Shown: positions 10,112 through 28,036, counted from the stretch's first letter. The stretch: 32,000 nucleotides of DNA from Geobacter sulfurreducens PCA (GCF_000007985.2 NC_002939.5:1470001-1502000), one strand, 5' to 3'. Notes: generated from the sequence alone by a model not told the origin. Translations and numbers: made by a program.

Positions 10112-10474
10112 ATGGAAAAGGATGTCAGTGTCTCCGGTGCGGCGGAAGGAGAGCGTAGCTCGACTGGAGCAGCACCGGAAGTCAAACGTTGGAGCGCCAA
10201 CCGCAAAAAGGAGGTTGTCCTGCGGTTGATGCGCGGTGAACCAATCGATGCCTTGTCCCGTGAGTTGGGCATCGAAATCTATCGCCTGGAAGAGTGGCAT
10301 CAGAAAGCACTCCAGGGGATAGAATCTGCTCTCAAGGCTCGTGAAGGTGATCCGTTGGCAGCGGAACTCGATGCAGCCTTCAAGCGCATCGGTGAGATCA
10401 CCATGGAAAACGAGCTACTGCGGGAGAAAGCGAGGCGTGCCCACCCTTTGGCCCAGAGGAGATCGAAGAAATGA
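10112..10474 (+). CDS. IS3-family transposase OrfA (HTH plus coiled coil)
   Basis: 120 aa. RWSANRKKEVVLRLMRGEPIDALSRELGIEIYRLEEW looks like an HTH and is followed by a leucine-zipper-like helix. A GGAGG RBS is present. Confidence 0.75.
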   Translation: MEKDVSVSGAAEGERSSTGAAPEVKRWSANRKKEVVLRLMRGEPIDALSRELGIEIYRLEEWHQKALQGIESALKAREGDPLAAELDAAFKRIGEITMENELLREKARRAHPLAQRRSKK

Positions 10475-11361
10475 GTGCTACGATCTCCCCTGCCACCGGT
10501 AAAGCCTATGGCGTTCAGCGCGTCTGCCTTGCCTGGGGAGTGCCCCGCTCGTCGTTCTATAGCCGTGCAGGCAGAAAAACATTGCCTGCTGTACTGCTCA
10601 AGCGTGGTCCAAAAACACCGCTCTCTGACGACGAGGTACTTTCTCTCATCCGGACCGACCTGGAGACATCCCCCTTTGTCGGCGAAGGGCACCGTAAGGT
10701 CTGGGGACGACTACGCTTCGTCAAAGGGATAAAAGTCGGCCGCAAACGAGTGTTGCGTCTCATGCGGGAGAACAATCTGCTCTCCCCTCACCGGGTTGTT
10801 CAGGGACAGCCCAAGGACCACGCCGGCAAGATCATCACGGCGGCCCCCAACGTCATGTGGGGTACCGATGGCACCAAGATCTTCACCCTGGAAGAAGGGT
10901 GGTGCTGGTTGTTTACCGCCGTCGAGCATTGGAATGCCGAGTGCGTCGGTTGGCATGTGACCAAGAATGGCGACCGGTTTGCCGCATTGCAGCCGCTCGC
11001 CATGGGAATCAAGGCCCGTTTCGGCTCGGTCGGTGCCGCTGCTGCTCGAGGGTTGGCACTGAGGATGGATCACGGCAGCCAATACCTCTCAGAGCATTTC
11101 CAGAATCAGATCAAGTTCTGGGGAATTGCCCCAAGTTTCTCATTTGTTGCCGAACCGCAGACCAACGGGGTGACGGAACGGTTTAATCGGACTATCAAAG
11201 AGCAGGTCATCTATGGCCGCCATTACCGCACAATCGAAGAAGTAAGGATGGCAGTAGCTGACTTCATGGATCGTTACAACCGGCTGTGGCTGGTTGAAAA
11301 GCTCGGGTTCAGAAGCCCACGACAGGCTTTCGAGGAGTATCAACTCAAGAAGGCTGCGTGA
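10471..11361 (+). CDS. IS3-family transposase OrfB (DDE integrase core, rve)
   Basis: 296 aa. WGTDGTKI (first D), LRMDHGSQY (second D) and PQTNGVTERFNRTIKEQ (E) match the rve catalytic triad context. There is an ATGA overlap with orfA. Confidence 0.85.
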   Translation: MSATISPATGKAYGVQRVCLAWGVPRSSFYSRAGRKTLPAVLLKRGPKTPLSDDEVLSLIRTDLETSPFVGEGHRKVWGRLRFVKGIKVGRKRVLRLMRENNLLSPHRVVQGQPKDHAGKIITAAPNVMWGTDGTKIFTLEEGWCWLFTAVEHWNAECVGWHVTKNGDRFAALQPLAMGIKARFGSVGAAAARGLALRMDHGSQYLSEHFQNQIKFWGIAPSFSFVAEPQTNGVTERFNRTIKEQVIYGRHYRTIEEVRMAVADFMDRYNRLWLVEKLGFRSPRQAFEEYQLKKAA

Positions 11362-11397
11362 CTCTTATCTTGTGTCCAGGGTACCGGGCGCGCTACA

Positions 11398-11411
11398 GAA
11401 AATCAATCTTT
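11398..11411. repeat. 14-bp direct repeat GAAAATCAATCTTT, right flank of IS
   Basis: Identical to 10033-10046. It lies 12 nt upstream of the MazG-like GTG start. Confidence 0.7.
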
Positions 11412-11423
11412 CCAGGGGATTAA

Positions 11424-11780
11424 GTGGAAAAAACAATACGTGAATTAACAGTGAGAGTTCGGGAGTTTTGCGAAGCACGAGATTGGGATCAATTCCATGG
11501 CCCAAAGGATCTTGCTATAGGGGTCATTACAGAGGCTTCGGAACTCTTAGAGCATTTCCGCTTTCAGTCTGATGAACAGGCGTTGGCATTGTTGAATGAC
11601 CCTAAAATTAAAGAGGAGATCGAAGATGAGCTTGCCGATGTCCTATTCTTCCTGCTCCGTTTCTCGCAGTTGTTCGATGTTGACCTGACCAAGGCCCTGC
11701 TGAGGAAGATCGAGAAGAGCGAAAAGAAATATCCCGTAGAAAAGGCAAAAGGGAAGAATACGAAGTACACGAAGCTGTAG
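11424..11780 (+). CDS. MazG-like nucleoside triphosphate pyrophosphohydrolase (all-alpha NTP-PPase)
   Basis: 118 aa with a GTG start. EASELLEHF and EEIEDELADVLFFLLRF form the ExxE...ExxD metal-binding pattern of MazG-type enzymes. GC is lower than in the flanking genes. Confidence 0.75.
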   Translation: MEKTIRELTVRVREFCEARDWDQFHGPKDLAIGVITEASELLEHFRFQSDEQALALLNDPKIKEEIEDELADVLFFLLRFSQLFDVDLTKALLRKIEKSEKKYPVEKAKGKNTKYTKL

Positions 11781-11809
11781 GCCGATATCCGCGTTCACAG
11801 GGGCCAGCA

Positions 11810-14212
11810 TTGATCGTTTATTCCGCCACAAAAGCCAGGTTCAAAGAAGATGTCATGACCAATGACATCGGCGGCATCATCTTCAACGCCTTCCAGAATG
11901 CAACGGGGCGAAGTACCGGCAGGGCCGAAATCGAATCGTGGATGCACTCGCTGCAGTATATGGACCGAGTTCTCAGCGACGATGAAATCCCCCACGACGC
12001 CGGCGTCGCCATCGAGTACCACCTCCCTCAAACCTCCAAGCGTATCGACTTCATCCTAACCGGCCGGGACAGGGACCGGCGCGAGTCGGCCATTCTCGTT
12101 GAACTTAAGCAGTGGCAGAAGGCGGAGCTGACCCAGAGTGACGCCATCGTTATTACCCGCTTCAAGCACGGCACCGCCGAAACCCTTCACCCCTCCTACC
12201 AAGCCTGGTCTTACAAGCGCCTCCTTGAAGACTTCAACCAGACCGTACAAGAAGAACATATCGGTCTCTACCCCTGCGCCTACCTGCATAACTACGAAGA
12301 CGACGGGGTAATTACCCATCCGTTTTACAGCGACCATATCAAGCGGGCACCGATTTTCCTCAAGCCCGATGCCCTGAAACTGCAGCAGTTCATCAAGACT
12401 CACGTCAAATTCGGCGATACGACCCGGATTATGTACCGGATCGAGCACGGCAAGATCAAGCCGTCCAAGAACCTGGCCGATGAGCTTGCTTCAATGCTCA
12501 AGGGCAACCGGGAATTCGTCCTGATCGACGACCAGAAAGTGGTGTTCGAGAAGGCGAAACGGTTGGCAGAGCAGGCATCGGAGCACACCAAAAAGGTCCT
12601 GATCGTCGAGGGAGGGCCGGGCACTGGTAAGTCGGTTCTAGCGATTAACCTCCTGGTGGCGCTTACCGGCAAGGATCATGTCGTCCAGTACGTCACCCGC
12701 AACTCGGCCCCTCGGCTCGTCTACGAGGCCAAGCTTACCGGCCACTTCCGGAAAACTCATATTTCCAACATGTTATCCGGTTCCGGCTCGTATCACGCGA
12801 CTCCACCCAACACGTTCGGTTGCCTCATCGTGGACGAGGCGCACCGGTTGAACGAGAAGTCCGGAATGTTCAGCCACCTGGGGGAGAACCAGATCAAGGA
12901 GATCATCAGCGCCAGCAGGCTGAGTGTCTTCTTCATCGACGAAGACCAGAAGGTGACCCTGAAGGACATAGGCGACAAGGAGGCGATCCGCACCTGGGCG
13001 GAGAAGCTAGGTGCCGAAGTCGTGGAGATGAGCCTGGAGTCACAGTTTCGCTGCAATGGCTCTAACGGTTACCTGGCGTGGCTCGACAATACACTGCAGA
13101 TTCGGGAGACGGCCAACGAGACGCTGGATACCCGTGAGTACGACTTCCGCATTGTTGATAGCCCATCCGAACTGCACGGCCTGATCAAGGACAAGAACAA
13201 GATAAGTAACAAGGCACGTATGGTGGCAGGCTACTGCTGGGACTGGACCAGCAAGAAGAATCCTCATTTGAAGGACATTGTCATTGGCGACTACCGGGCG
13301 ACTTGGAACCTGGAGACAGACGGCCAGGCGTGGATCATAAAGCCCGACTCCGTCAGCGAGGTGGGGTGCATTCATACCTGCCAGGGGCTGGAGGTGGACT
13401 ACATCGGCGTCATCGTCGGGCCGGATTTGGTCGTCCGCGACGGCAGTGTGCTGACCCGGCCGGCCGAGCGGTCGAGAATGGACAAGTCGATCCAGGGGTG
13501 GAAGAAGCTGCTCAAGGATGATCCCGAAGGTGGCGCGGCGCGGCTAGACGCCATCATCAAGAACACCTACCGAACCCTCATGACGCGCGGCCAGAAGGGA
13601 TGCTACGTCTACTTCACAGACGAGGAGACACGCCGGTACTCCGCCGAACGGCTGCAGATCGGGCCGGCAGCAGAGCAGGTTGCCGAGAAACCGGTGCTGC
13701 CTGCAGACGAAGAAGCAGTGGTCCTGCCGTTCCGCCTTCTGGGGCCAGAGCAAGCGCGGCCATACGAGAACTGCGTACCGCTCTACGACTTCAAGATCGC
13801 CGCCGGCGGCTTCAGTGACGAGCAACAGGTGGATGATTGCGACTGGGTTGAACTGCCGGAAGAATTCCGTCCAAGGAAAGGGCTGTTTGTGGCCCAAGTG
13901 GTGGGTGAGTCGATGAACCGGCGCATCCCGAACGGGGCCTGGTGCCTCTTCCGCATCGCCTCGGCCGGCTCACGGAACGGCAAGGTCGTCCTCGCCTCGC
14001 ACCGGGAGATAGCCGATAACGATACCGGCGGACACTACACCGTCAAGATTTACGAGAGCACGAAGGAGAGTTTTTCTGATGGGACGTGGCGGCATGCGTC
14101 GATCATCCTGCGGCCGGACAGTGCCTTGCCTGGGTATGAGCCGATTGTGTTGAGCGAGGAGCAGGCGGAGGATTTGCGGGTGATTGGGGAGTTGGTGGCG
14201 GTGCTGGGGTGA
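11810..14212 (+). CDS. DUF2075-type (Schlafen-helicase/Nhi-like) nuclease-ATPase fused to a C-terminal LexA-like S24 peptidase domain
   Basis: 800 aa with a TTG start. N-terminal PD-(D/E)xK-like residues E69, D80, E98-x-K100 (IEYHL..RIDFILTG..ILVELKQW). Walker A VEGGPGTGKS and Walker B LIVDEAHRL. Family C-terminal motifs HTCQGLEVDYIGVIVG and YRTLMTRGQKGCYVYF. Residues about 655-790 align by eye to the LexA C-domain (IAAGG, GESM with S701, TVKIY with K746). Confidence 0.75.
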   Translation: MIVYSATKARFKEDVMTNDIGGIIFNAFQNATGRSTGRAEIESWMHSLQYMDRVLSDDEIPHDAGVAIEYHLPQTSKRIDFILTGRDRDRRESAILVELKQWQKAELTQSDAIVITRFKHGTAETLHPSYQAWSYKRLLEDFNQTVQEEHIGLYPCAYLHNYEDDGVITHPFYSDHIKRAPIFLKPDALKLQQFIKTHVKFGDTTRIMYRIEHGKIKPSKNLADELASMLKGNREFVLIDDQKVVFEKAKRLAEQASEHTKKVLIVEGGPGTGKSVLAINLLVALTGKDHVVQYVTRNSAPRLVYEAKLTGHFRKTHISNMLSGSGSYHATPPNTFGCLIVDEAHRLNEKSGMFSHLGENQIKEIISASRLSVFFIDEDQKVTLKDIGDKEAIRTWAEKLGAEVVEMSLESQFRCNGSNGYLAWLDNTLQIRETANETLDTREYDFRIVDSPSELHGLIKDKNKISNKARMVAGYCWDWTSKKNPHLKDIVIGDYRATWNLETDGQAWIIKPDSVSEVGCIHTCQGLEVDYIGVIVGPDLVVRDGSVLTRPAERSRMDKSIQGWKKLLKDDPEGGAARLDAIIKNTYRTLMTRGQKGCYVYFTDEETRRYSAERLQIGPAAEQVAEKPVLPADEEAVVLPFRLLGPEQARPYENCVPLYDFKIAAGGFSDEQQVDDCDWVELPEEFRPRKGLFVAQVVGESMNRRIPNGAWCLFRIASAGSRNGKVVLASHREIADNDTGGHYTVKIYESTKESFSDGTWRHASIILRPDSALPGYEPIVLSEEQAEDLRVIGELVAVLG

Positions 14213-14234
14213 TCTTACGGCGGATTGAGGTTCA

Positions 14235-17200
14235 ATGCGTTTAGCTCACGGCATATACGAAGCACTTCTCGATGAAGCTTTGCAGGAGGCCCTAGCCCTG
14301 CGGCCGGAACTGCGACGCGTTTTCAGCAAGATCGATCAGGAGGAGCAGCCGGCCCTCTATGCCGCCTTTGTCGCCCGGGTACTGGAGCAGGCGCTGCGAG
14401 AGGAGTCGGACCAGGAAAAGCGCCTCGCACTCTGCAACCGGATTCTTGGCTCCGTGGCTGCTGAGCCGGGTAGGGGGCATCTGGAAAAGCGCCGTCTGAT
14501 CCCGGAACAGAAGCCGCTCCTCTTGGAAATCACCCCGCCCAACTACAACCAATCCGGGCTCCCCCGGCCCCATACCTCTCTTGCACAAAGCAGTCTCTTT
14601 ACCGGAGCAGATGGTCATCTCCAGCTTGTCCATGAGTTGCTGGCTGAACTACGCTCCGCCGACGGGGTGGATATCCTCGTATCCTTCATCAAGTGGTCCG
14701 GTCTGCGGCTCCTCATGCCGGCTTTTGAAGATCTGCGTGACCGACAGGTCCCGGTGCGGCTGATCACCACCTCCTACATGGGGGCGTCCGATGCCCCGGC
14801 GGTGGAGTGGCTGGCTGGTCTCCCCAACGTGCAGGTCCGAGTCTCCTACGACACCGAGCGGACCCGGCTCCACGCCAAGGCCTATCACTTCCGGCGGCAG
14901 AGCGGCTTCTCCACCGCCTACATCGGCTCAGCCAACATGTCCCAGGCGGCGATTACCAGCGGGCTGGAGTGGAACCTGAAAGTCACCGCCCAGGACATGC
15001 CTCACGTGCTGGAGAAGTTCAGCGTCGAGTTCGAGACTTACTGGAACAGCCGGGAATTCGTCCCCTTCGATCCGGCCCGGCCGGAGCAGTTTCGCAGCGC
15101 CCTGGCCCGCGCCAAGAACAAGGAGATCAGCGGTCCGGCGGTCTTTTTCGATCTTACCCCCCACCCGTTTCAGGAGCGGATTCTGGAAGCGCTGGAGCGG
15201 GAGCGCAGCGCCCACGACCGCTGGCGCAATCTGGTCATCGCCGCCACCGGCACCGGTAAGACCGTGGTAGCGGCCTTTGATTTCAAGCGCTTCTATGAGC
15301 AGAAACAGAAGCAGGCAAAGCTCCTTTTCCTGGCCCACCGGCAGGAGATTCTCCAGCAGGCACTCGGCACCTTCCGCAACATCCTGCGGGACCAGAATTT
15401 CGGCGAACTGCAGGTCGGGCCCTATGACGCCACCCGTCTGGAGCACCTCTTCTGCTCCGTCGGTATGCTCACCTCCCGCCGCCTCTGGGAGCAGGTCGGC
15501 CCGGACTTCTACGACTACATCGTCATCGACGAAGCCCACCACGGCACGGCCGGCAGCTACCGTCCCATCTTCAACCACTTCTCCCCGCAGATACTGCTGG
15601 GACTCACCGCCACCCCGGAACGGATGGACGGCGATAACGTGGCCGCCGATTTTGGCAACCGCTTTGCCGCCGAGATCCGCCTCCCTGAAGCGCTGGAGGA
15701 GAAGCTCCTCTGCCCCTTCCACTACTTCGGCATTGCCGACCCCATCGCCATCAACGGCGATCAGTTCTGGCGCAATGGCAAGTACGATGCCGCGGCTCTG
15801 GAGAACGTCTATGTCCTCGATACGGCCAACGCCCGTAAGCGGGTGGCGGCGATCATTGAGGCTCTGAAGCGCTACGAGCCGGACGTAGCGAGCCTCAAGG
15901 GGATCGGTTTTTGCGTCACCATCCGCCATGCCGAGTACATGGCCGAGCAGTTCAGCCAGCGCGGCATCCCGTCAGCCCCCTTTGTCTCCGGCATCGACTC
16001 CGACCAGTGCGCCGACCTCCTGGCCCGGCTGAGAAACGGCCAGCTCACCTTCCTCTTCACCGTGGACAAGCTGAGTGAAGGGGTGGACGTGCCGGAGATC
16101 AACACCGTCCTCTTTCTGCGCCCCACCGAGAGCCTGACGGTCTTTCTCCAGCAGCTCGGCCGCGGCCTGCGCCATGCCCCGGAGAAGGAGTGCCTCACCG
16201 TCCTCGACTTTGTCGGTCAGGCCCACCGCCGCTACCGCATCGACACCAAGCTGAAAGCACTCCTCCCCCGGCACCGCTTCGCCATCGACAAGGAAGTGGA
16301 GCAAGATTTCCCCCATCTGCCGGCCGGCTGCGCCATCCAGCTTGACCGCCTCTCCCGCCAGTATGTGCTGGACAATATCCGGGAGAACTTCGGCCGTCTG
16401 GCGGTGCAGGTGCCGGACCGGCTCCAGACCTTTACCAGCGAGACCGGGCAGGAGCTGACCTTTGGCAACTTCATCCGCTACCACGATTACGAGCCGGAGG
16501 TGCTGCTGGCCAAGGAGTCGTGGAGCGAGTGGAAAGCCAAGGCCCAACTGGCGCCGATTCCGGTCGATCCCGATCTGGCGCGGCTGAAGAAAGCCCTGCT
16601 CCGGGCGGCCTTCATCAATGGCCCACGGGAAGCAGAGCTGCTGCGGCAACTGCTGGCCATGCTTGCCGCCGGGCAGGTGATCGAGGCGCTGGCTCTGGCC
16701 GGTTCATCGGCCATGCTGCTCTATTACCGCATCTGGGGGGATAGGGCGGAGAAGGTGGGGATTGCCTCGCTGGCAGAGGCCTTCCAACGGCTAGCCGCCA
16801 ACCCGAGCATCTGCGCCGATTTGGACGAGATTTTGGCCTGGTCGTTGGATACCACCGAAGTTGCCGGGATTGCCCCGGAGCTGCCGTATCGTGTGCCGCT
16901 GGAGTTGCACGCCCAGTATGGCATTCGTGAGGTTCAGGCCGCCTTTGGCCGTGCGACGCTGGAGAGCAGCGGCCAGACCGGGGTCGGGGTGATGCACTTT
17001 GCCGAGCAGAAGACCTATGCCCTGTTGGTGACCTTCCAGAAGACGGAAAAGGAGTTCTCCCCCAGCACCATGTATGCGGATTACCCCATCAGCCGGGAGC
17101 TGCTGCACTGGGAGTCCCAGGCCAACACCGCCCAGCATCACACCGACGGGCAGAACCTGATTCATCATCAGGAGCGGGGCTACACGGTTCTGGTATTTGC

Positions 17201-17360
17201 CCGTGGGAAGAAAAAGCGGAACGGGGTTACAGTGCCGTTCACTTACCTGGGGCCGGTGGATATGGTGAGTTATGAGAGCGAGCGGCCGATTAAGATGGTC
17301 TGGCGGCTCAGGTATGCGATGCCGGTGGAGATGTTTGAGGATAATCGGCGGGGTGGGTGA
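14235..17360 (+). CDS. PLD-family nuclease domain + SF2 (ResIII/DEAH) helicase + DUF3427-like C-terminal domain
   Basis: 1041 aa. HKD motif RLHAKAYHF...YIGSANMS. Helicase motifs I ATGTGKT, II VIDEAHH, III LTATP and VI QQLGRGLRH. The C-terminal 200 aa (YGIREVQAAFG...YALLVTFQK...YADYPIS...LHWESQ...VLVFAR) matches my recollection of DUF3427. Confidence 0.75.
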   Translation: MRLAHGIYEALLDEALQEALALRPELRRVFSKIDQEEQPALYAAFVARVLEQALREESDQEKRLALCNRILGSVAAEPGRGHLEKRRLIPEQKPLLLEITPPNYNQSGLPRPHTSLAQSSLFTGADGHLQLVHELLAELRSADGVDILVSFIKWSGLRLLMPAFEDLRDRQVPVRLITTSYMGASDAPAVEWLAGLPNVQVRVSYDTERTRLHAKAYHFRRQSGFSTAYIGSANMSQAAITSGLEWNLKVTAQDMPHVLEKFSVEFETYWNSREFVPFDPARPEQFRSALARAKNKEISGPAVFFDLTPHPFQERILEALERERSAHDRWRNLVIAATGTGKTVVAAFDFKRFYEQKQKQAKLLFLAHRQEILQQALGTFRNILRDQNFGELQVGPYDATRLEHLFCSVGMLTSRRLWEQVGPDFYDYIVIDEAHHGTAGSYRPIFNHFSPQILLGLTATPERMDGDNVAADFGNRFAAEIRLPEALEEKLLCPFHYFGIADPIAINGDQFWRNGKYDAAALENVYVLDTANARKRVAAIIEALKRYEPDVASLKGIGFCVTIRHAEYMAEQFSQRGIPSAPFVSGIDSDQCADLLARLRNGQLTFLFTVDKLSEGVDVPEINTVLFLRPTESLTVFLQQLGRGLRHAPEKECLTVLDFVGQAHRRYRIDTKLKALLPRHRFAIDKEVEQDFPHLPAGCAIQLDRLSRQYVLDNIRENFGRLAVQVPDRLQTFTSETGQELTFGNFIRYHDYEPEVLLAKESWSEWKAKAQLAPIPVDPDLARLKKALLRAAFINGPREAELLRQLLAMLAAGQVIEALALAGSSAMLLYYRIWGDRAEKVGIASLAEAFQRLAANPSICADLDEILAWSLDTTEVAGIAPELPYRVPLELHAQYGIREVQAAFGRATLESSGQTGVGVMHFAEQKTYALLVTFQKTEKEFSPSTMYADYPISRELLHWESQANTAQHHTDGQNLIHHQERGYTVLVFARGKKKRNGVTVPFTYLGPVDMVSYESERPIKMVWRLRYAMPVEMFEDNRRGG

Positions 17361-17419
17361 TTCTTGGGGCTGACAAGATAATCACTACTTCCAGACTTGT
17401 ATACAGGGGATCTAATAGC

Positions 17420-19183
17420 ATGGATGTCTTAACTGACAATGAGTTTTACCAGCACTACCTTCAGAATTCACAGCACATGATGTGGTTTTTAGGGGCAGGA
17501 ACGTCTCGTTCTGCTGGTTTGCCTACTGCTAGCGATATCATTTGGGATCTTAAACATCGATATTACTGCTTACATGAAAATCAGGATTATCAAAAACATG
17601 ACATCAATAATCATGCAATAAAAAGCAAAATCCAAAGTTATATGGATAGCAAGGGATTTCCTTTACAGTGGAGTCCAGAAGAATACTCATTTTATTTTGA
17701 ATTGGTCTTCCGCGATGATTACGAGGCGCAACGAAAGTACCTTTTAGAAGCCCTTGCCAGCAGAAAGGTGTCTCTGAATATCGGTCACCGAGTTCTTGCT
17801 GCCCTACTTGAGATGAACCAGACCAAAGTTGTTTTCACAACCAACTTTGATGATGTCATAGAAACCGCCTTCTCAGATATTAGTGGCAAGCATTTGTCTG
17901 TTTATCACCTTGAAGGATCCTATGCCGCCTTATCTGCATTGAATACCGAAGCCTTTCCCATTTACGCCAAGATTCATGGCGACTTCCGTTATCAAAAAAT
18001 AAAAAATCTTACCCCAGATCTGCAGACCAATGATCGCGAAATACATAAATGCTTTCTTGCTGCAGCTATCAGGTTCGGTCTTGTTGTATCAGGCTATAGT
18101 GGTCGTGATGAAAACGTTATGACTATGCTTCGGGCTGCAATCGATCAGAACAATGCATTCCCGCATGGGCTCTACTGGACCGTACCCTCTATTTCTAAGT
18201 CGGAGCCAGCCGTTCAGGATTTGATCACTTACGCACAAGGCAAAGGTGTTCGCGCCTATCTGGTGGAAACCGGTACATTTGATGAAATGCTCTCAAAGAT
18301 TTGGCGACAGGTGAAAGACAAACCTGCTGCCATCGATGCCAAAGTACGAACAGCCCGAGTTTGTCCCGTTTCCATACCACTACCCGGCCCCGGCAAATCC
18401 TTTCCGGCCTTGCGTACCAACGCTCTACCAGTGGTCACTCAATCCATCCGATGCGGAGTTGTAACGTTGGCTAGTCCTATAACCTTCTCCGAGCTGAAGG
18501 AAAGGATAAGTCAGAAATCGCCAAAAGCACTCCTGACGTACACGGAAAAGGTATTGTTTTTGGGTGGAGAGCCAGAAATCAGAAAGATTTTTTCAAATGA
18601 CGAGATCAATTCCATCGGTCAATACTATATTGATGAGATAGCTCAAAGCGTTGCCGCCTCTACTTTCTTGAAATCCTTTGTTGAGGAGGCAATTCTCACT
18701 GCGTTATTGCGCGAGAAACCCATTCTGCACCGTGTCCGGCATAGAACACATTATGCAGTTATACCGAATGCCTCAGCAAAAGATGACAGATTTTTGGATT
18801 TAAGAAAGGCAGTGGGGTTCAAAGGAGATCTTGGGTACATTACCGGAAACGTTACAAATGCAAAAGAATTGAGTTGGGCTGAAGCCGTGTCGATTCGTCT
18901 TGAAGAACGAGGGGGCAAGCTCTGGATCATGCTAAAACCGGAAATTTGGATAAAGCCATTGGATAGGCGAGAAGAGGCCACGGATTTCATTCGAAGTCGA
19001 AGACGTTATCGATTCAATCAATGTTCATATCAGATCCTCGATGCCTGGATCAAAATACTGTTCGGTTCAATCGGAGGTGGCGGTACGGTAAATATATCTT
19101 GTTTCCCTGATGCAGAGTTTAAAGCCGAGTTCGAGATCGGAACACGCACTGCCTTTAGTCTGGGGGTGGGATATGGCCGATAA
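17420..19183 (+). CDS. SIR2-APAZ protein (NADase partner of short pAgo; SPARSA type)
   Basis: 587 aa from the ATG at 17420, with AGGGGA as RBS. SIR2 Rossmann motifs [19 protein letters not shown] (N142) and KIHGD (H186). The long C-terminal half is consistent with APAZ. It overlaps the downstream Argonaute gene by 11 nt. GC drops sharply relative to the upstream helicase. Confidence 0.85.
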
Positions 19184-20594
19184 TCTTTCGCAGCTTGCGG
19201 CACATTCAACCATTCCAGAGCCCTTGCTTCTCTTCAAAGACAACCGTACAGACACACATCCTCTTCGTGGGCTCTCACAGTATGGGCCTTATAGCGCCTG
19301 TTTTAACCTTCCAGGTCAAGTTAGGCTAGCATACCTTGCCCCCACAGAGCATATGCGCAAGCTGGATGCCATTGTACGCGAGTTGCAGAACCCAGCTACG
19401 CCGAAGGAAGCGACGAACTATTATGTGGAGTATGGAGGATTTGAGAAAGTCTTCAAGGTGCCACTAGTTATGCCGCAGGAACATCTGAGATGTTTAGCCC
19501 TGGATGAATGTCATGGTGTTGCGGCAAATGGCAACGGACTCGCTCTTGCAGATAAGATTGTTCAGTCGATGTCTGGTCTTTTTCGACAAAAACATGCGTT
19601 TGATGTTCTGTTAGTGTATTTGCCTGCCAGCTGGAAGAAGTGTTTTGAGTATGATGGATTTGACCTGCATGACCGAATAAAGGCGAAAGTTGCTCCGCTC
19701 AATTTGCCTATTCAAATCATCAACGACACTGCGCTAACGAGACAATGCCGCGCCAATGTCATGTGGGGTGTCAGCGTTGCCCTGTATGCTAAAGCAGGCG
19801 GAATACCGTGGAAGCTGGCGGACTGGGATAAAGACGAAGCTTATATCGGACTCAGTTATGCCATCAAGAAAAATGCTGAAGGACAAGAATATACAACGTG
19901 CTGCAGCCAGGTCTTTGATCCGGATGGAACCGGCTTTGAATTTGTAGCCTACGACACGCGCGAATTTATTACCGATCGTAAAGGCAACCCGTATCTCAGC
20001 TACCAGGAAATGCAATCCGTTCTTTCAAAAAGCCTTCACCTTTATCAGAGCAGCCATAACGGACGAATGCCACGAAAAATTTTCATTCACAAAACTACGC
20101 ACTTCACTGAAGATGAAATACAGGGGGCATTCGATTCTTTCAGCAGTTCGACAGAGATCGAACTCGTGCAGATTATTCAGAGCACAAACTGGTATGGATT
20201 GAAAGTTGACGGTAAAAAGGGAGATAAACCTGTAGCTCCAGCATCATACCCAGTAGATAGAGGTTTGTATCAACCGCTGACAGAATCAGAATGCTTGCTC
20301 TGGACTCAAGGTAGCGTTATGGGGGTGAATCAACAAAATCCGGGTCAACCGGTGTTCAAGGAAGCGGCTCTTACTCCTCTACCGAACCCGATCATGTTGC
20401 GTCGTTTTTCAGGCAATGGAGGCTGGCATGCTACCTGTTCAAGCATTCTTGCGCTGACGAAGGTTGACTGGAACAATAATACGCTCTACAAAAAGTTACC
20501 AGTCACTCTCGTTTATTCACAAGTTTTCGCAGATGTTGTGAAGCAGACACCGGAAATTGTTAACGAAATATATGATTATCGGTTTTTTATGTAA
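19173..20594 (+). CDS. short prokaryotic Argonaute (MID-PIWI only, predicted catalytically inactive)
   Basis: 473 aa. PIWI-like [17 protein letters not shown] sits where active Agos carry G-x-D. The size is too small for N/PAZ domains. The ATG at 19173 lies inside the 3' end of the SIR2-APAZ gene. Confidence 0.85.
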
Positions 20595-20650: not shown

Positions 20651-21832
20651 ATGGATTTAATCGAAATAGCTGATGTAAGAGAATGGCTAAGCCAATTTAG
20701 TGAAGCAGACATCCCAATTGCTATATCGATGTTAAGATCATTGAATCTAGTTTCTCATAATGCGTTTAGTGCCGGGATTGAAAATAGCATTAAAACTATC
20801 GTTAAAAAACATGGGAAAGCCGCGGTTTTTCCAGTTAAACGTGCGTTGGTTAAGAAAGTGCCTGGAAAAGACTATCGGCATCTTTATCAGAGTGCAGATG
20901 CGATTGGTTACTTACTCACAAACCTTGAAAGAAGTATGCCTAGGAGCATTTCTGTAGAGCCAACGCACGCCAGCATGAAGGCCGAGAAGGTAAAACATAT
21001 AGTTTTTATTGATGATTTAATAGGTACTGGGAAGCGAGTTAATAGCTTTTGGCAAGAATGGGCTAACAAAAGTTATAAGAGTTGGTTGTCTTTCAGGTAT
21101 TGCGAGTTATACATCTTGAGTTATGCAGCATCTAGAAGCGGGATTGAGTATTTATTAAATGAAATACCATATCTTAAACCTGAGAATATACTTACATCAA
21201 TATCACTGCCTAGAGTCAGTCCACTTGCCAATGATGAAATGAAAAGAATTTGTAACTACTATGGGGAAAAAACCGCAAAGTCAGTAGTGAAGTTCGGTTA
21301 TGGTAACCAGATGTTAAATGTAATTTTTCAGCATGCTTGTCCTAATAATGCACCCTCCATCTTATGGTCTCCCGGAAAACAGTGGAAGGCTTTATTTCCG
21401 AACAGATCCATTCCAGCATCCTTTCATAAGGTGTTTGGTGGAACCTTTCCATTTAAAATAGCTGATTCGTTATGGGATATTCATCAGCCTCGGCTAGCAC
21501 TGGAGATTCTCGATCGTCTAGAATCAGGAAGAATACAACGGGAAACTGTTGAACTGTTAACAGTCCTGGGTTTTCTGGCGAGAGGTGTTGGCCTTATAAG
21601 AATATATGAATGTACCCTCTTGGAGAAATCTAGGGTCGACGAAGCCATTTTGATATTGAAGCAGGTGGGACTTGTAACAAAGAATTTTGAGATTACCAGT
21701 TTTGGTAAAGAAGTTCTTAATCGATTTAAGGCAACAGATAAACGGAAATATGAGCTTGTCTGCGACCAATTATTGTACTACCCTCATCAATTTAAGGGGC
21801 TCCAGAGAAAATCTAGTGAAGGCCCAACCTGA
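20651..21832 (+). CDS. phosphoribosyltransferase-like (PRTase) protein with C-terminal winged-helix-like domain; candidate retron effector
   Basis: 393 aa. KHIVFIDDLIGTGKRV (D121 D122 ... T126 G127) matches the PRPP-binding loop pattern (hydrophobic4-DD-xx-TG). The C-terminal LEILDRLESGRIQRETVELLTVLGFLARG...ILILKQVGLVTKNFEITSFGKEVL looks wHTH-like. GC is very low. Confidence 0.6.
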   Translation: MDLIEIADVREWLSQFSEADIPIAISMLRSLNLVSHNAFSAGIENSIKTIVKKHGKAAVFPVKRALVKKVPGKDYRHLYQSADAIGYLLTNLERSMPRSISVEPTHASMKAEKVKHIVFIDDLIGTGKRVNSFWQEWANKSYKSWLSFRYCELYILSYAASRSGIEYLLNEIPYLKPENILTSISLPRVSPLANDEMKRICNYYGEKTAKSVVKFGYGNQMLNVIFQHACPNNAPSILWSPGKQWKALFPNRSIPASFHKVFGGTFPFKIADSLWDIHQPRLALEILDRLESGRIQRETVELLTVLGFLARGVGLIRIYECTLLEKSRVDEAILILKQVGLVTKNFEITSFGKEVLNRFKATDKRKYELVCDQLLYYPHQFKGLQRKSSEGPT

Positions 21833-21990
21833 GTGTTGGGTACGAGTAGGCAGCGGATTCCGCGAGCCATTGGAATAGCACATGAATGAACAAGGATATT
21901 AATGGCAAACGCTTACGTTCGTATGCCTTACTACGTTCGCCATTAATGTCCTCGCTTCGCGAGGTTGAAGTAGATGAGTATCTGGAGCCC
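21797..21990 (+). ncRNA. candidate retron msr-msd non-coding RNA
   Basis: A perfect 10-bp inverted repeat, GGGCTCCAGA (21797-21806) and TCTGGAGCCC (21981-21990), brackets the PRTase-RT intergenic region. Inside are a 6-bp hairpin (21823-21840) and a long stem (21893-21911 pairing 21934-21952, one mismatch and one G:T wobble). An alternative 6-bp hairpin is at 21950-21964. The exact ends and the branching G are not determinable by eye. Confidence 0.55.
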
Positions 21991-23116
21991 GCTTTTATTT
22001 AATGCTGAAGGAAAGAAACAAGGGTATGATTGCCGTTATCTCCACAAGTTAACTGACCAAGGGAATAAACTCTCAGACAGTGGTTTGCCTGTAATTTTCA
22101 CGCTCGCTCACCTGTGTGCGATGGCAGGTGTTTCCTTTTCTCTCATTCACTCCTGTGTGTCCAGGAAATACGACCCATATAGAAGCTTTACAATTAAAAA
22201 GAGGTCGGGAGGGTATCGCCAAATTGTGGTGCCTGAACCTGAGTTAATGCATCTCCAGAGATGGATTAATGAGTTTATATTGAAGCGGGCAAAGGTGCAT
22301 TCTTGTGCTGCTGCATATATTTCAGGCTCCGATATAAAAATGAATGCTTCAAAGCATCTCGGTGCAAACTGGCTAATAAAGTTAGATATACAGAGATTTT
22401 TCGAGTCTATATCAGAACTGCAAGTTTATTATATCTTCCATAGACTTGGGTATCCAAAATTATTGTCGTTTGAAATGGCCAGAATCTGTACCAGAGTAGA
22501 CACCCAAAGCAATAGACATTTTAGACCAAGATGGAATAACAGAATCCATCACTTCGAAATCCTTGAGTACTGTGATTCTAGGGTTGGTTATTTACCACAA
22601 GGTGCTCCTACTAGTCCGAGTTTGTCCAATTTAACCTGCCGAAAACTTGATAAAGAAATTTACGACCTTAGTTGCCGTTCTGATTGCCGATATACTAGAT
22701 ATGCAGATGACTTCGCCTTTTCTTTTATAGATCTTGATAGGGAAAAAGCCTCAAATTTTGTAAATCAAGTCAGTCGAATCATATCATCTTACGGTTTTAG
22801 AAAGAATGCTCGAAAAACAAAGATCATACCCCCTGGATCAAAAAAAATTATTACCGGGCTTGTTTTGGGTAATGGGAAAGTGCATCTTCAGAAAGAATTA
22901 AAGGATTACATAAGACAAAATATATACTTTGCAACTAAATATGGTGTAGATGAACACTGTAAAAAACGTGGATTCGTCTCAATAGATGGATTTTATAATC
23001 ATCTGGAAGGAATTGTTAATTTTGCACTATTTATTGAACCAGATTTTGGAGAAAAAGCCTTTGAGGAGTTTCGTGCAATTAAGTGGCCATCTTTAATAGT
23101 GGGGCTTCATGCTTAG
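21974..23116 (+). CDS. retron-type reverse transcriptase
   Basis: 380 aa. RT motifs: FTIKKRSGGYRQIVVP (motifs 1/2), KLDIQRFFESI (motif A), LPQGAPTSPSLSNL (motif B), YTRYADDFAFS (YADD, motif C). Retron-associated signatures: NASKH (NAxxH, residues 124-128) and IITGLVL (VTG-like, residues 292-295). GAGG RBS lies 9 nt upstream. Confidence 0.85.
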   Translation: MSIWSPLLFNAEGKKQGYDCRYLHKLTDQGNKLSDSGLPVIFTLAHLCAMAGVSFSLIHSCVSRKYDPYRSFTIKKRSGGYRQIVVPEPELMHLQRWINEFILKRAKVHSCAAAYISGSDIKMNASKHLGANWLIKLDIQRFFESISELQVYYIFHRLGYPKLLSFEMARICTRVDTQSNRHFRPRWNNRIHHFEILEYCDSRVGYLPQGAPTSPSLSNLTCRKLDKEIYDLSCRSDCRYTRYADDFAFSFIDLDREKASNFVNQVSRIISSYGFRKNARKTKIIPPGSKKIITGLVLGNGKVHLQKELKDYIRQNIYFATKYGVDEHCKKRGFVSIDGFYNHLEGIVNFALFIEPDFGEKAFEEFRAIKWPSLIVGLHA

Positions 23117-24202: not shown

Positions 24203-25249
24203 ATGGCACGACAACGAACTAGCCCAATGGAAGAAATGATTTTGGTTGCCACCAAGCTCCCCTGGTGGGCGTGCCTGCTGCTGGCACTTGTGTCGTACGC
24301 CGTGCTTCACGTGATGGCAATGCGGCCTGTAATGCCTGCTACGGTTGTCCCCGGCCAGATGGGTGACGCCGTGGCACGGGGGCTCATTACGACTCTGGCC
24401 ATGTTTGGACAGTACGTGATGCCATTTGCGTTTGCTCTGGCTGCCCTGCTGTCGGCCGTTAATGAATATCGGAATAAAAAGAGCGGTACTTTCGTCCCTA
24501 ATCATCTTGATGTAGCGCCACCTTCCAGGAAAAGAGTGTCAACAGAAGCTAGCGTTCCAATGCCCACATCCGGTAATTCCGGAAAGATGAACCGGGATTT
24601 CGATCATATGCTTCCTGGTGGTGAGGAAGAACTAGCAATTGAGAATCCGCAACCTGTCCCATTGCCGCAGCAGTGGGGCATGTCTGTCATTCAAATGATG
24701 GAGTGGAAGCGTTTTGAAATTGTCACCCGGGAATTTCTGAAGATGACAGGATATGATGCCCATGAAACGAAGGTGGGCGCTGATGGCGGAGTGGATATTA
24801 GGGTCACAAAGCCCAGTAACGATACTTTCCAGGGTATTGTGCAGTGCAAAGCTTGGAATTCGTATCGGGTTGGGGTAAAGCCAGTGCGCGAGCTTTATGG
24901 TGTCATGGCCGCCGAAAAGGCGACGGCTGGTATGGTTATCACATCCGGTACCTTTACTGCGGAAGCGGAAGAATTTGCTAAAGGGAAGGTCAAACTAATT
25001 TCTGGCGTGAATTTTCTTGAGCTTATTCGAAAATTGCCACCGGAGAAACAACAAAGGCTTCTGGATATTGCATTGGAAGGGGATTATCAAACGCCAACGT
25101 GCCCACAGTGTGACCTGAAAATGACACTGCGCGAAAATAAGTCGGGGAAAAATCCAGGGTCAAAATTCTGGGGATGTGTCCGGTATCCCCACTGTCGGCA
25201 AACGCTCGTATATACCGGGAACGGAAGCCGGGTCAGGCTTCCAAGTTGA
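24203..25249 (+). CDS. membrane-anchored Mrr-like restriction endonuclease with C-terminal topoisomerase-type zinc ribbon
   Basis: Two N-terminal hydrophobic helices (LPWWACLLLALVSYAVLHVMA; MFGQYVMPFAFALAALLSAV). Mrr_cat-like core WKRFEIVTREFL...GADGGVDIRV...GIVQCKAW. C-terminal CPQCD...FWGCVRYPHCRQT. GAGGAG RBS. Confidence 0.75.
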   Translation: MARQRTSPMEEMILVATKLPWWACLLLALVSYAVLHVMAMRPVMPATVVPGQMGDAVARGLITTLAMFGQYVMPFAFALAALLSAVNEYRNKKSGTFVPNHLDVAPPSRKRVSTEASVPMPTSGNSGKMNRDFDHMLPGGEEELAIENPQPVPLPQQWGMSVIQMMEWKRFEIVTREFLKMTGYDAHETKVGADGGVDIRVTKPSNDTFQGIVQCKAWNSYRVGVKPVRELYGVMAAEKATAGMVITSGTFTAEAEEFAKGKVKLISGVNFLELIRKLPPEKQQRLLDIALEGDYQTPTCPQCDLKMTLRENKSGKNPGSKFWGCVRYPHCRQTLVYTGNGSRVRLPS

Positions 25250-25964: not shown

Positions 25965-26618
25965 ATGACGAACGCCCTGTTGCTCAAAAGCATCCCCTAT
26001 GAGGAGTTTGACTACCAGACCCTGCTGGATGTCGTTCATGGGTATGCCCGGCCACGGATGAAGATTTCCGCGATGCTGGCAAAGGGCGATATCATCCGGG
26101 TCAAGAAGGGGCTCTACATCCTCGGCGAACCTCTGCGCCGTCGGCCTTTCTGCCGGGAACTGCTCGCCAATCTCGTCTATGGCCCATCCTATATTTCTCT
26201 TGAATACGCCTTGCACTATCACGGCCTGACCCCGGAGCGGGTCGAGGCGGTGACTTCGGTTACCTGCGGGCGGTCACGGACCTTCGCTACCCCGGTCGGC
26301 ACCTTTTCCTATCGAATGATCCCGCTGGAAGCCTTTCGCACCGGCATGGACCGCGTTGAGTTGGATGATGGCCGCTCCTTCCTCGTGGCCATTCCGGAAA
26401 AGGCGCTGGCCGACCGGATCGTTGCCGACCGGGGCGCCGGCATCTCCACCCAGAAAGAGCTGCACGAGTACCTGCTGTCCAGCCTGCGCATCGATCCCGG
26501 CGGTCTCCGTGAACTCGATCCGGTCCGTGTTGCGGAGATCGCCCGTGCGTACCGCTCCCGCAGAGTAAAACTATTGGCCGATCTGATCAGCCGCCTGCAC
26601 AGAAGAGGGGGACGATGA
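25965..26618 (+). CDS. abiEi: type IV toxin-antitoxin system antitoxin AbiEi
   Basis: KGDIIRVKKGLYILG and YGPSYISLEYALHYHGLTPE are typical of AbiEi. It overlaps the abiEii start by 4 nt. An alternative ATG is at 25956. Confidence 0.8.
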   Translation: MTNALLLKSIPYEEFDYQTLLDVVHGYARPRMKISAMLAKGDIIRVKKGLYILGEPLRRRPFCRELLANLVYGPSYISLEYALHYHGLTPERVEAVTSVTCGRSRTFATPVGTFSYRMIPLEAFRTGMDRVELDDGRSFLVAIPEKALADRIVADRGAGISTQKELHEYLLSSLRIDPGGLRELDPVRVAEIARAYRSRRVKLLADLISRLHRRGGR

Positions 26619-27490
26619 TGCACGAGGCCGTGGCCCGCATGCTTGCCAAATACGAACCAAAGAGCGTTGACGACTCGGTCAGGGCTCTGCGGGAGATTAT
26701 CCAGGAGGTGGCGCTGCTCGGACTCTGGCGGTCGAAGTTTTTCGAGCATGCCGCGTTTTACGGCGGCACTGCTCTGCGTATCCTGTACGGACTCGACCGG
26801 TTCTCCGAGAATCTGGATTTTTCGCTGCTGGAACCGTCGCCTGATTTCAATCTTGCGCGTTATACGGCATCACTTGAGGAGGAATTGTCGGCCTTCGGCT
26901 TCAACGTCCGGGTGGAGATGGTCGGCAAGGCCGTGGAATCGGCGGTTCAGTCTGCGTTTCTCAAAGCCAACACCCGTAACGAACTCCTGGTCATCGAGAC
27001 CGGTGGAGAGCTTGCCGGTCAGGTTGCCGCCGGCCAGGTGCTGAAGGTGAAGATCGAGGTGGATACGGACCCGCCGACCGGGTTTACCACCTCGACCCGT
27101 TATCTGCTGCAACCGATACCCTTTGCCGTTCGGAGCTATTCGCTCCCGGACCTGTTTGCCGGCAAGATGCATGCGCTCCTCTTCCGCAGGTGGAAAAACC
27201 GGGTCAAGGGGCGCGACTGGTATGATTTCGTCTGGTATGCTGCCAACCATCCGCAGCTTAATCTTGCCCACCTCGAGCAGCGGATGCGCCAGACCGGCCA
27301 TTGGAGCGGGGATCTGCCACTTTCTGCTGCCGCGTTCAGAGAGTTGCTGTCCGATAGCATCGACCGGCTTGATGTCGATCAGGCACGCAACGACGTGGCA
27401 CCGTTCGTCAAGGATCAACAGGCGCTCGCTCTCTGGTCCCATGACTTTTTCCGGGATGTTGCGAGACGCGTTCAGACTGATGAAGGATGA
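26615..27490 (+). CDS. abiEii: AbiEii/AbiGii-family nucleotidyltransferase toxin
   Basis: 291 aa. FYGGTALRILYGLDRFSENLDFSL (NTase G-x-a-l plus D-x-D context), LPDLFAGKMHALLFR and GRDWYDF are typical of the family. Confidence 0.85.
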   Translation: MMHEAVARMLAKYEPKSVDDSVRALREIIQEVALLGLWRSKFFEHAAFYGGTALRILYGLDRFSENLDFSLLEPSPDFNLARYTASLEEELSAFGFNVRVEMVGKAVESAVQSAFLKANTRNELLVIETGGELAGQVAAGQVLKVKIEVDTDPPTGFTTSTRYLLQPIPFAVRSYSLPDLFAGKMHALLFRRWKNRVKGRDWYDFVWYAANHPQLNLAHLEQRMRQTGHWSGDLPLSAAAFRELLSDSIDRLDVDQARNDVAPFVKDQQALALWSHDFFRDVARRVQTDEG

Positions 27491-27601
27491 ACTCGGCAAT
27501 CTCAAGGAGTGAAGGACATACCCGGCGAATCAAGACCGAACGCAACGGTTGCTGACGCCGGGAGAAGTATCTGGTCGAGTATCGCAGAGAATGGCGGTTA
27601 T

Positions 27602-27658
27602 GACCCCCCTCAATCCCCCCTATTCCATAGGGGGGAAGCGAACGACGAGAGCAGGGGG
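27602..27658. repeat. 57-bp direct repeat, copy 1, containing a 9-bp-stem hairpin CCCCCCTAT-TCC-ATAGGGGGG
   Basis: GACCCCCCTCAATCCCCCCTATTCCATAGGGGGGAAGCGAACG is identical to 28008-28050. The following 14 nt carry 2 mismatches. The hairpin is at 27615-27635. Confidence 0.85.
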
Positions 27659-27667
27659 GTGGTGTCC

Positions 27668-28036
27668 ATGAAAACCTACACCAAGGCTTTGATACCGCGT
27701 GCACGGGACATGCGCTCGAACATGACGGAGCCGGAAAAGCGGATGTGGTATCAGTGTTTGAAGCACCTGCCGCTACGTTTCCGCCGTCAACGCCCTGTTG
27801 GTCCCTACATTGTCGATTTCTACTGCGCCGAGCTGAAACTGGTCATCGAAATTGACGGTGCCAGTCATGCCACCGACGAAGGGATTGTGTACGATGCGGG
27901 ACGGACGGCTTTTCTTGAAGGGCTTGGCTTGCGGGTTATTCGATTCGGAAATCATGAAGTCATGAACAACATTGAAGGCGTATTCGAGAGCTTGCAAAAA
28001 GAAGTGCGACCCCCCTCAATCCCCCCTATTCCATAG
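27668..28036 (+). CDS. DUF559 (Vsr-like) endonuclease domain protein
   Basis: RARDMRSNMTEPEKRMWYQCL...FRRQRPVGPYIVDFYC...LVIEIDGASH...RTAFLEGLGLRVIRF is the classic DUF559 pattern. I prefer the ATG at 27668. The last ~9 codons are encoded by repeat copy 2. Confidence 0.8.
   Translation: MKTYTKALIPRARDMRSNMTEPEKRMWYQCLKHLPLRFRRQRPVGPYIVDFYCAELKLVIEIDGASHATDEGIVYDAGRTAFLEGLGLRVIRFGNHEVMNNIEGVFESLQKEVRPPSIPPIP

Follow-up and report, generated by a model that had tools for sequence, protein, structure and literature searches.

The stretch of DNA analysed here (the window) comprises 32,000 nucleotides of the genome of Geobacter sulfurreducens PCA (GCF_000007985.2, NC_002939.5:1470001-1502000), and the gene in question occupies positions 11810-14212. 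Its 800-residue product joins a predicted nuclease domain and a DUF2075 ATPase domain to a C-terminal domain of the S24 type, the self-cleaving peptidases (autopeptidases) represented by LexA, UmuD and the lambda repressor CI, and the same S24 subfamily recurs as a portable module on many unrelated restriction and defence enzymes. An earlier note, made from the DNA sequence alone, had read the C-terminus of this protein as a LexA-like S24 domain with a cleavage site at A665-G666, a nucleophile at S701 and a general base at K746. The open reading frame and the numbering of these residues and their codons are exact, and the features of the gene are as follows.

11810..14212, + strand: whole gene (from the list of open reading frames), TTG start, 800 amino acids plus stop; nuclease (predicted), DUF2075 ATPase and S24 autopeptidase (predicted)
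11810..12559, + strand: N-terminal domain, residues 1-250, predicted nuclease with a PD-(D/E)xK-type signature (E69, D80, E98-x-K100)
12590..13621, + strand: DUF2075 / Schlafen group-3 helicase/ATPase domain of the superfamily 1 (SF1) type, residues 261-604 (Pfam PF09848)
13625..13723, + strand: linker between enzyme body and S24 module, residues 606-638, poorly conserved and low in modelling confidence (predicted local distance difference test, pLDDT)
13724..14209, + strand: portable S24 (LexA/UmuD/CI-type) module, residues 639-800, running from a conserved LPFR strand through the cleavage-site region and the catalytic core
13802..13807, + strand: predicted scissile bond A665-G666, in K-I-A664-A665-G666-G-F-S, aligned with LexA A84-G85
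13910..13912, + strand: S701, predicted nucleophile, in a G-E-S-M motif, aligned with LexA S119
14045..14047, + strand: K746, predicted general base, in a Y-T-V-K motif, aligned with LexA K156

The enzyme body

The product of the gene is 100% identical to a protein already on record for Geobacter sulfurreducens (P0001), and more than 100 clusters at 70-89% identity match it in length and in Pfam architecture. The fusion of DUF2075 to S24, for which the earlier note had thought a survey of homologues worthwhile, is common in databases. PF09848 (DUF2075/SLFN-g3_helicase) matches residues 261-604 from end to end (positions 1-354 of 354, E = 3.1e-106), and in an alignment of 64 full-length homologues of 39-88% identity both the Walker A motif GGPGTGKS (residues 268-275) and the Walker B motif DEAH (342-345) are at least 95% conserved. 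The N-terminal residues E69, D80 and E98-x-K100 are kept in at least 95% of the same homologues, and in a moderate-confidence part of the full-length structural model they are surrounded by alpha-beta-beta-beta-alpha secondary structure. Residues 1-250 matched no Pfam family, a search of PDB sequences with residues 1-630 gave no match, and PHROGs and NCBIfam yielded nothing useful for the N-terminal domain; because Pfam and PDB sequence matches are lacking, the PD-(D/E)xK nuclease fold is offered as an inference from the motif and the modelled secondary structure. The nuclease-ATPase body that the earlier note had placed ahead of the S24 domain is in agreement with these findings, its nuclease part being represented by the conserved PD-(D/E)xK-type motif.

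The full-length AlphaFold model was built from a shallow alignment and is poor (mean pLDDT 57.9). Foldseek searches with it returned only SF1B helicases (RecD2, Dda and Dna2) and SLFN11, and because of its quality no conclusion is drawn from it on contacts between the S24 domain and the body or on the nuclease fold. Among the 64 full-length DUF2075-S24 proteins the mean column conservation is 0.74 for the S24 region, 0.71 for the ATPase, 0.66 for the N-terminal domain and 0.34 for the linker, so that the S24 region is the best-conserved part of the protein.

Identity and conservation of the S24 domain

The Pfam family Peptidase_S24 (PF00717) covers residues 657-750 with 26.4 bits in the whole protein, rising to 31.6 bits (E = 1.5e-7) when the C-terminal 170 amino acids are searched alone, both scores exceeding the gathering score of 23.3; the family is flagged in most homologues, and in PHROGs the C-terminus matches the repressor family phrog_4 (E = 1.9e-9). 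AlphaFold2 modelling of residues 631-800 with 38 homologues gave a mean pLDDT of 85.7 and a predicted template modelling score (pTM) of 0.81. The sole low-confidence loop, residues 35-43 of the C-terminal fragment, lies around the proposed scissile bond, which fits a mobile cleavage-site region. Comparison with the PDB by Foldseek placed only LexA, lambda CI or UmuD at ranks 1-31, all with probability 1.0 (the best being 3k2z_A, E = 4e-5); S26 signal peptidases, which are related, come next. An hhalign comparison to E. coli LexA pairs VPLYDFKIAAG with LPLVGRVAAG, GESM with GMSM and YTVK with VTVK, and thereby reproduces the alignment that had been made by eye. The S24/LexA fold is thus found by Pfam, AlphaFold2, Foldseek and hhalign alike at residues 655-790, where it had been predicted to lie. 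Sequence-only comparison with solved structures is nearly blind to this relationship, a phmmer search of the PDB with the C-terminus giving only LexA at E ~0.6 and a profile of the subfamily giving no PDB match at E <= 0.01, and the S24 identity is settled by Pfam, hhalign and Foldseek.

Residue conservation was assessed in the best 150 of 1,658 cluster representatives (50% clustering) from an exhaustive search with the C-terminal 170 residues. S701 is conserved in 147 of 148 and K746 in 144 of 147, while the cleavage motif A664-A665-G666, which hhalign equates with LexA A83-A84-G85, is kept at 136, 138 and 133 of 140 respectively. Such conservation is well past chance expectation. Both catalytic residues, which the earlier note had described as intact, and the Ala-Gly site as well, appear from these alignments to be under strong purifying selection; the retention together of nucleophile, base and the domain's own substrate site makes a decaying or purely structural domain unlikely. 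Residues 639-800 are, with high confidence, predicted to be a catalytically competent autopeptidase of the LexA/UmuD type.

A repressor of the LexA or CI type was considered and rejected as the identity of the whole protein, there being no N-terminal (winged) helix-turn-helix (HTH) domain: Pfam found no HTH family in the protein, and residues 1-604 consist of the nuclease-like domain and the DUF2075 ATPase. Automatic annotations of DUF2075-S24 proteins or their fragments (JGI; P0089, P0128, P0146, P0163 and others) read 'SOS-response transcriptional repressor LexA' or 'phage repressor protein C with HTH and peptidase S24 domain', and since the HTH domain is absent these labels are misleading.

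A portable module on restriction and defence enzymes

A search with the C-terminal 170 residues alone showed that the same S24 subfamily, in modules about 50-71% identical, is C-terminal on many unrelated enzymes. Among restriction enzymes the hosts include complete type I HsdR proteins (HSDR_N + SWI2_SNF2 + T1R_D3 + T1RH-like_C), type III Res, type ISP and MmeI-like type IIG enzymes, the type II endonucleases XhoI and LlaJI, and an McrBC component; other hosts are PLD nucleases, DUF3427 helicases, SNF2 ATPases, GHKL ATPases, Schlafen AlbA_2 proteins, YprA/MZB helicases of up to 1,969 amino acids, and GIY-YIG variants of DUF2075. In every host the module starts at the conserved LPFR strand, about 25 residues ahead of A-A-G, and this boundary is common to the DUF2075, HsdR, Res and type ISP fusions. 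The earlier note had treated the S24 domain as a feature of one effector; the fusion stands, but its restriction to that effector does not, the subfamily being present on at least 10 other restriction or defence architectures.

A scan of species-representative genomes confirmed at least 536 loci with the module, in Thermodesulfobacteriota, Gamma- and Betaproteobacteria, Acidobacteriota, Verrucomicrobiota, Planctomycetota, Myxococcota, Chloroflexota and other phyla. Sequenced plasmids are nearly devoid of it, a single 1.8-Mb Halomonas replicon being the only case, and it was absent from the phage records searched. One DUF2075-S24 gene (L033), on a contig of 2.9 kb, has been assigned to a metagenome-assembled genome of an uncultured Methanobacterium; all other matches are bacterial, and this apparent archaeal case may stem from faulty binning. 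Standalone S24 proteins were considered as a separate family and rejected, the one examined (P0138) being the tail of a fragmented DUF2075 gene (L007) and most others lying on very short contigs.

Modules from different hosts interleave: in 28 of the 62 that could be classified, the closest S24 relative belongs to another class of enzyme, as illustrated by an HsdR module and a type ISP module of 71% identity, and this pattern points to repeated domain shuffling of the module between hosts. The close relatives of one HsdR-S24 protein are either about 1,200 amino acids long with PF00717 or about 1,020 without it, their HsdR bodies being 70-76% identical, and the HsdR-S24 genes sit within ordinary hsdM-hsdS-hsdR operons. 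The S24 module is therefore accessory to HsdR.

In type ISP-S24 fusions (P0354, 964-1166; P0381, 455-651; P0366, 194-392) the S24 domain is internal and is followed by an extra conserved tail of about 140-200 amino acids. These tails share 47-55% identity with one another, contain two repeats of 'AIRELxxxLG[FY]xRTG' and gave no Pfam match; cleavage in such proteins would free S24 together with the tail.

The MazG-like partner gene and the surrounding genes

The DUF2075-S24 gene starts 30 nt past the stop codon of a small gene encoding a MazG-like nucleoside triphosphate (NTP) pyrophosphatase.

11424..11780, + strand: MazG-like all-alpha NTP pyrophosphatase, 118 amino acids, homologue of DCTPP1/RS21-C6 (Pfam MazG-like, E = 2.3e-12; PDB 2a3q/6sqw, E = 3e-19)

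A MazG-like gene lies directly upstream on the same strand, at a gap of 5-220 nt, in 61 of 67 DUF2075-S24 loci from many phyla (loci L001-L088), which makes the conserved unit a two-gene cassette, and the pairing persists where the DUF2075 body is only about 35% identical. The pairing of a predicted pyrophosphatase for (modified) deoxycytidine triphosphate with a nuclease-helicase suggests that nucleotide-pool sanitising or depletion may form part of the defence. In the literature covered we found no paper that names MazG and DUF2075 together.

The other genes annotated in the window are listed below.

10112..11361, + strand: IS3-family insertion sequence/transposase (OrfA, weak HTH_Tnp_1; OrfB, rve integrase core, E = 6e-14)
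14235..17360, + strand: PLD-helicase-DUF3427 type IV methyl-directed restriction enzyme (PADLOC mREase_IV, E = 1e-199)
17357..19183, + strand: SIR2_2-domain protein, 608 amino acids; its listed start overlaps the stop of the type IV restriction enzyme by 4 nt
19110..20594, + strand: 494-amino-acid open reading frame, no Pfam match
20651..21832, + strand: PRTase-CE plus winged-HTH effector
21974..23116, + strand: reverse transcriptase
24203..25249, + strand: Mrr_cat endonuclease with a Zn ribbon
26615..27490, + strand: AbiEii toxin, preceded by a 220-amino-acid open reading frame without a match
27509..28036, + strand: DUF559/Vsr-like endonuclease

The IS3 element ends 62 nt before the MazG-like start codon, and the cassette's native promoter may have been pushed aside or replaced by it; a promoter and terminator scan of positions 11300-14400 gave nothing beyond shuffled expectation, and no tRNAs were found in the window. 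The type IV restriction enzyme that follows the DUF2075-S24 gene bears no S24 domain, and the same enzyme family carries the module elsewhere (P0269). It was rejected as an operon partner and is taken as a separate system, for the downstream genes differ among homologous loci. Near position 17000 the G+C content falls from about 0.65 to about 0.47, which suggests a separately acquired block, and the PRTase-CE/winged-HTH effector and the reverse transcriptase (20651-23116), which lie within the lowest-G+C stretch of the window (about 0.38-0.42), together look like a retron-type system. The open reading frame ahead of AbiEii is probably AbiEi. With a type IV restriction enzyme, SIR2, retron-like reverse transcriptase and PRTase, Mrr, AbiE and DUF559 genes, the region is a dense defence island, and this setting lends contextual support to a role of the DUF2075-S24 protein in protection against phage.

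Residues that may contact RecA filaments

Cryo-electron microscopy of RecA filaments on single-stranded DNA (ssDNA; the filaments are written RecA* below) in complex with LexA, UmuD and lambda CI has revealed two determinants shared by these substrates (PMC9926225). One is a hydrophobic pocket for F203 of the RecA L2 loop, formed in LexA by F111, L113 and V153; the other is an acidic patch directly before the strand that bears the catalytic lysine, D150-E152 in LexA, which contacts RecA* (PMC9926225). Candidate counterparts of both are found in the Geobacter protein.

13886..13888, + strand: F693, equivalent to LexA F111 by hhalign, conserved in 147 of 147
14015..14038, + strand: acidic loop D736-x-D738-T-G-G-x-Y743 before the Lys strand, corresponding to the LexA D150-E152 patch plus V153

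Within the loop, D736 is conserved in 144 of 149, D or E at 738 in 141 of 149 and Y or F at 743 in 137 of 147, with a mean net charge of -2.4, and the aromatic residue three positions before the lysine, Y743 here, corresponds to F94 of UmuD, F189 of CI and V153 of LexA. The conservation of F693, Y743 and D736/D738 is suggestive as support for stimulation by RecA*. Two features point the other way: Ala or Cys stands in the place of LexA L113, and in the hhalign alignment the acidic loop exceeds that of LexA by five residues. With a small residue in the one place and an insertion in the other, the geometry of RecA* binding may differ. On balance we lean, by a little, towards cleavage being RecA*-stimulated.

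Possible function in restriction alleviation

We propose that DNA-cutting defence enzymes have taken up the S24 domain as a portable regulatory module at their C-terminus. The flexible loop carrying A665-G666 would dock in the S701/K746 active site, most likely under stimulation by RecA-ssDNA filaments, as in LexA, UmuD and lambda CI, and the resulting intramolecular cut would separate an S24 fragment of about 15 kDa (residues 666-800) from a nuclease-ATPase body of about 75 kDa (residues 1-665). The body would then end in ...K-I-A-A-COOH, an ending similar to the ssrA tag (LAA) and to LexA's latent ClpXP degron (VAA); residues P3-P1 of the cleavage site are [A/V/I/L]-A-A in about 96% of representatives. 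The enzyme would be degraded or otherwise switched off during DNA repair, a built-in form of restriction alleviation, and host repair intermediates that are unmodified or contain ssDNA would be spared from the cell's own nucleases. Latent ClpXP C-degrons lie directly beside the cleavage site of LexA-like proteins (PMC5742171, citing Neher 2003 and Niu 2010), and damage-induced proteolysis of HsdR by ClpXP is established as restriction alleviation for type IA and IB enzymes (PMC12707154, PMC4231737, PMC11109961).

The steps of this proposal differ in strength. That the module cleaves in vivo is likely; that the net effect of cleavage is inactivation we put somewhat short of an even chance, and the whole chain of RecA*-stimulated self-cleavage, degron exposure and enzyme removal at close to even, on the lower side. 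Several points weigh against the proposal. The cleavage loop is the one low-confidence part of the C-terminal model, which therefore does not show it docked in the active site, and the full-length model is too poor to tell whether S24 touches the body. An A-A C-terminus is needed for LexA-type cleavage in any case, and its conservation alone is therefore no proof of a degron. The tail past S24 in the type ISP fusions suits a cleavable tether that releases something at least equally well. Negative feedback of this kind would weaken defence just when restriction of phage DNA raises the RecA* signal. Some LexA-like proteins, such as IrvR (PMC7101444), cleave without RecA. Finally, cleavage, its RecA* trigger and its outcome, including the direction of down-regulation, are all inferred.

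The main competitor is the reverse arrangement, in which S24 keeps the enzyme inactive by autoinhibition, dimerisation or tethering until cleavage licenses the nuclease; RecA filaments on phage ssDNA or replication intermediates, or on damaged DNA, would supply the trigger, and RecA* would serve as an infection cue. The structural case for an autopeptidase that is competent and probably responds to RecA* holds equally here, and UmuD is a precedent for an S24 cleavage that activates. Hosts that have no methyltransferase partner (DUF2075/Nhi-like, YprA/MZB, SNF2, GHKL and Schlafen AlbA_2 proteins) need a non-self cue, and the type ISP tail would be freed by cleavage. Yet the module is also found on the methylation-guarded type I, III, ISP and IIG enzymes, XhoI and LlaJI, which must act immediately on incoming DNA and need no activating cue. 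Near-identical HsdR bodies work without the module, moreover, and it is unlikely that a single small domain could make the specific contacts needed to autoinhibit about a dozen unrelated catalytic architectures. A generic inactivating degron better explains one module on so many architectures, methylation-guarded ones included, than does enzyme-specific autoinhibition, and we regard activation by cleavage as unlikely, though attractive for the hosts that lack a methylase (DUF2075, YprA, SNF2 and GHKL) and well suited to the type ISP fusions with the extra tail.

Built-in restriction alleviation must also be set against cleavage that does without RecA, the cue being pH or redox, a phage protein or a conformational state of the attached motor such as stalled translocation; the module would then be a timer or fuse and not a sensor of the SOS response. 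IrvR provides the family precedent, the acidic-loop insertion and the small L113 equivalent are compatible with it, and nearly all hosts are ATP-driven DNA motors; but the match of F693, Y743 and the acidic loop to the determinants of three RecA*-dependent substrates, and the presence of the module on the non-motor enzymes XhoI and LlaJI, make it improbable. Least probable of all, in our estimate, is a non-proteolytic role, in which the domain would join two enzyme heads by dimerisation, recruit the enzyme to ssDNA by docking on RecA filaments, or serve as a protease in trans. LexA, UmuD and CI have C-terminal domains that do dimerise, and many host enzymes act as dimers or require two heads. 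LexA, UmuD and CI are also dimers in their RecA* complexes (PMC9926225). Near-invariance of S701, K746 and A-A-G is nevertheless not expected of a purely structural domain, and in every host the cleavage-site strand belongs to the same polypeptide and lies within the module. Taken at its broadest, the proposal would make one horizontally shuffled LexA-type cassette a general and hitherto unrecognised regulator of prokaryotic restriction that senses RecA-ssDNA filaments and destroys (or licenses) its enzyme in cis, across type I, III, ISP, IIG, II and IV enzymes and Nhi-like, YprA, SNF2 and GHKL defence ATPases. Innate immunity would thereby be coupled to the SOS signal in a direct, post-translational way, and the cassette would amount to a portable, genetically encoded device for restriction alleviation; this wider claim is tentative, and we hold it rather doubtful.

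To our knowledge every S24 autopeptidase characterised so far controls a transcription factor or UmuD, and the control of nucleases in cis by S24 would, if true, constitute a new functional class of a textbook family; a known switch has here apparently taken on a new and apparently general role. The earlier note knew of no S24 domain fused to an effector of this kind, and likewise we found no description of S24 on DUF2075, Nhi or restriction enzymes in the literature covered, which included a 2025 restriction-modification review and surveys of YprA, BREX and McrBC and left most subscription journals aside, so that a prior description is possible. The presence of a portable module on restriction enzymes suggests an undescribed DNA-damage-sensing switch for bacterial immunity. 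Should cleavage be RecA*-dependent, it would link the SOS response directly, and independently of transcription, to restriction and defence activity. The module would bear on how restriction autoimmunity is avoided during DNA repair, a problem for which, as far as we know, only the ClpXP route of type IA and IB enzymes is understood, and on how methylation-independent nuclease-helicases such as Nhi-like proteins are restrained. Being small (about 160 amino acids), portable and self-contained, it might also serve as an engineering part, as a damage-triggered protein off-switch or degron. Geobacter sulfurreducens, in which the protein studied here occurs, is a model organism open to genetic manipulation.

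Comparison with known systems

With LexA the Geobacter protein shares the fold, the Ser-Lys dyad, the V/I-A-A|G motif, equivalents of the F111 and acidic-patch residues and, as predicted here, a latent -AA C-terminus on cleavage. It differs in lacking the winged-HTH domain, so that the part released would be a 665-residue nuclease-ATPase and not a repressor domain; in its acidic loop, longer by the insertion described above; in an extra conserved N-terminal LPFR strand; and in an identity to LexA of only about 22-27%. UmuD/UmuD', the manager of polymerase V, and repressors of the lambda CI type are likewise S24 autopeptidases whose RecA*-stimulated cleavage alters a partner or an attached domain, and both have the aromatic residue that matches Y743. 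UmuD, however, is small, stands alone and cuts in trans inside a dimer, and CI carries an HTH domain; an enzyme fusion is present in neither of them.

The body of the protein resembles Nhi and the Nhi-like proteins, Nhi being an anti-phage nuclease-helicase (Bari 2022) and the Nhi-like architecture consisting of an N-terminal predicted nuclease plus DUF2075 (Millman 2022), and it shares with them a location in a defence island. Described members, in contrast, have neither an S24 domain nor a MazG partner. The PADLOC models for Nhi (E = 9.6e-10) and AbiO (E = 7.2e-10) reach no further than the N-lobe of the ATPase, residues ~234-416, and so do not match over the length of the family model, and the best PADLOC match, to the candidate system PDC-S41 (E = 4.2e-14), is also partial. 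The protein would accordingly be described as Nhi-like in its predicted architecture rather than as a demonstrated member of Nhi.

Other links between immunity and DNA-damage or ssDNA signals are provided by CapH/CapP of CBASS and by WYL regulators such as BrxR and DriD. These are separate, transcriptional regulators, CapP being a metallopeptidase and the WYL proteins ligand-binding, whereas the S24 module would act post-translationally and in cis. A functional parallel to the proposed mechanism is the ClpXP-dependent restriction alleviation of type IA/IB HsdR (EcoKI), in which HsdR is likewise removed by proteolysis on DNA damage or when host sites are unmodified. In EcoKI the protease recognises the translocating HsdR directly, without an autopeptidase, whereas the proposed model would place the damage sensor within the enzyme itself, and the resemblance between the two is best read as functional analogy and not as homology.

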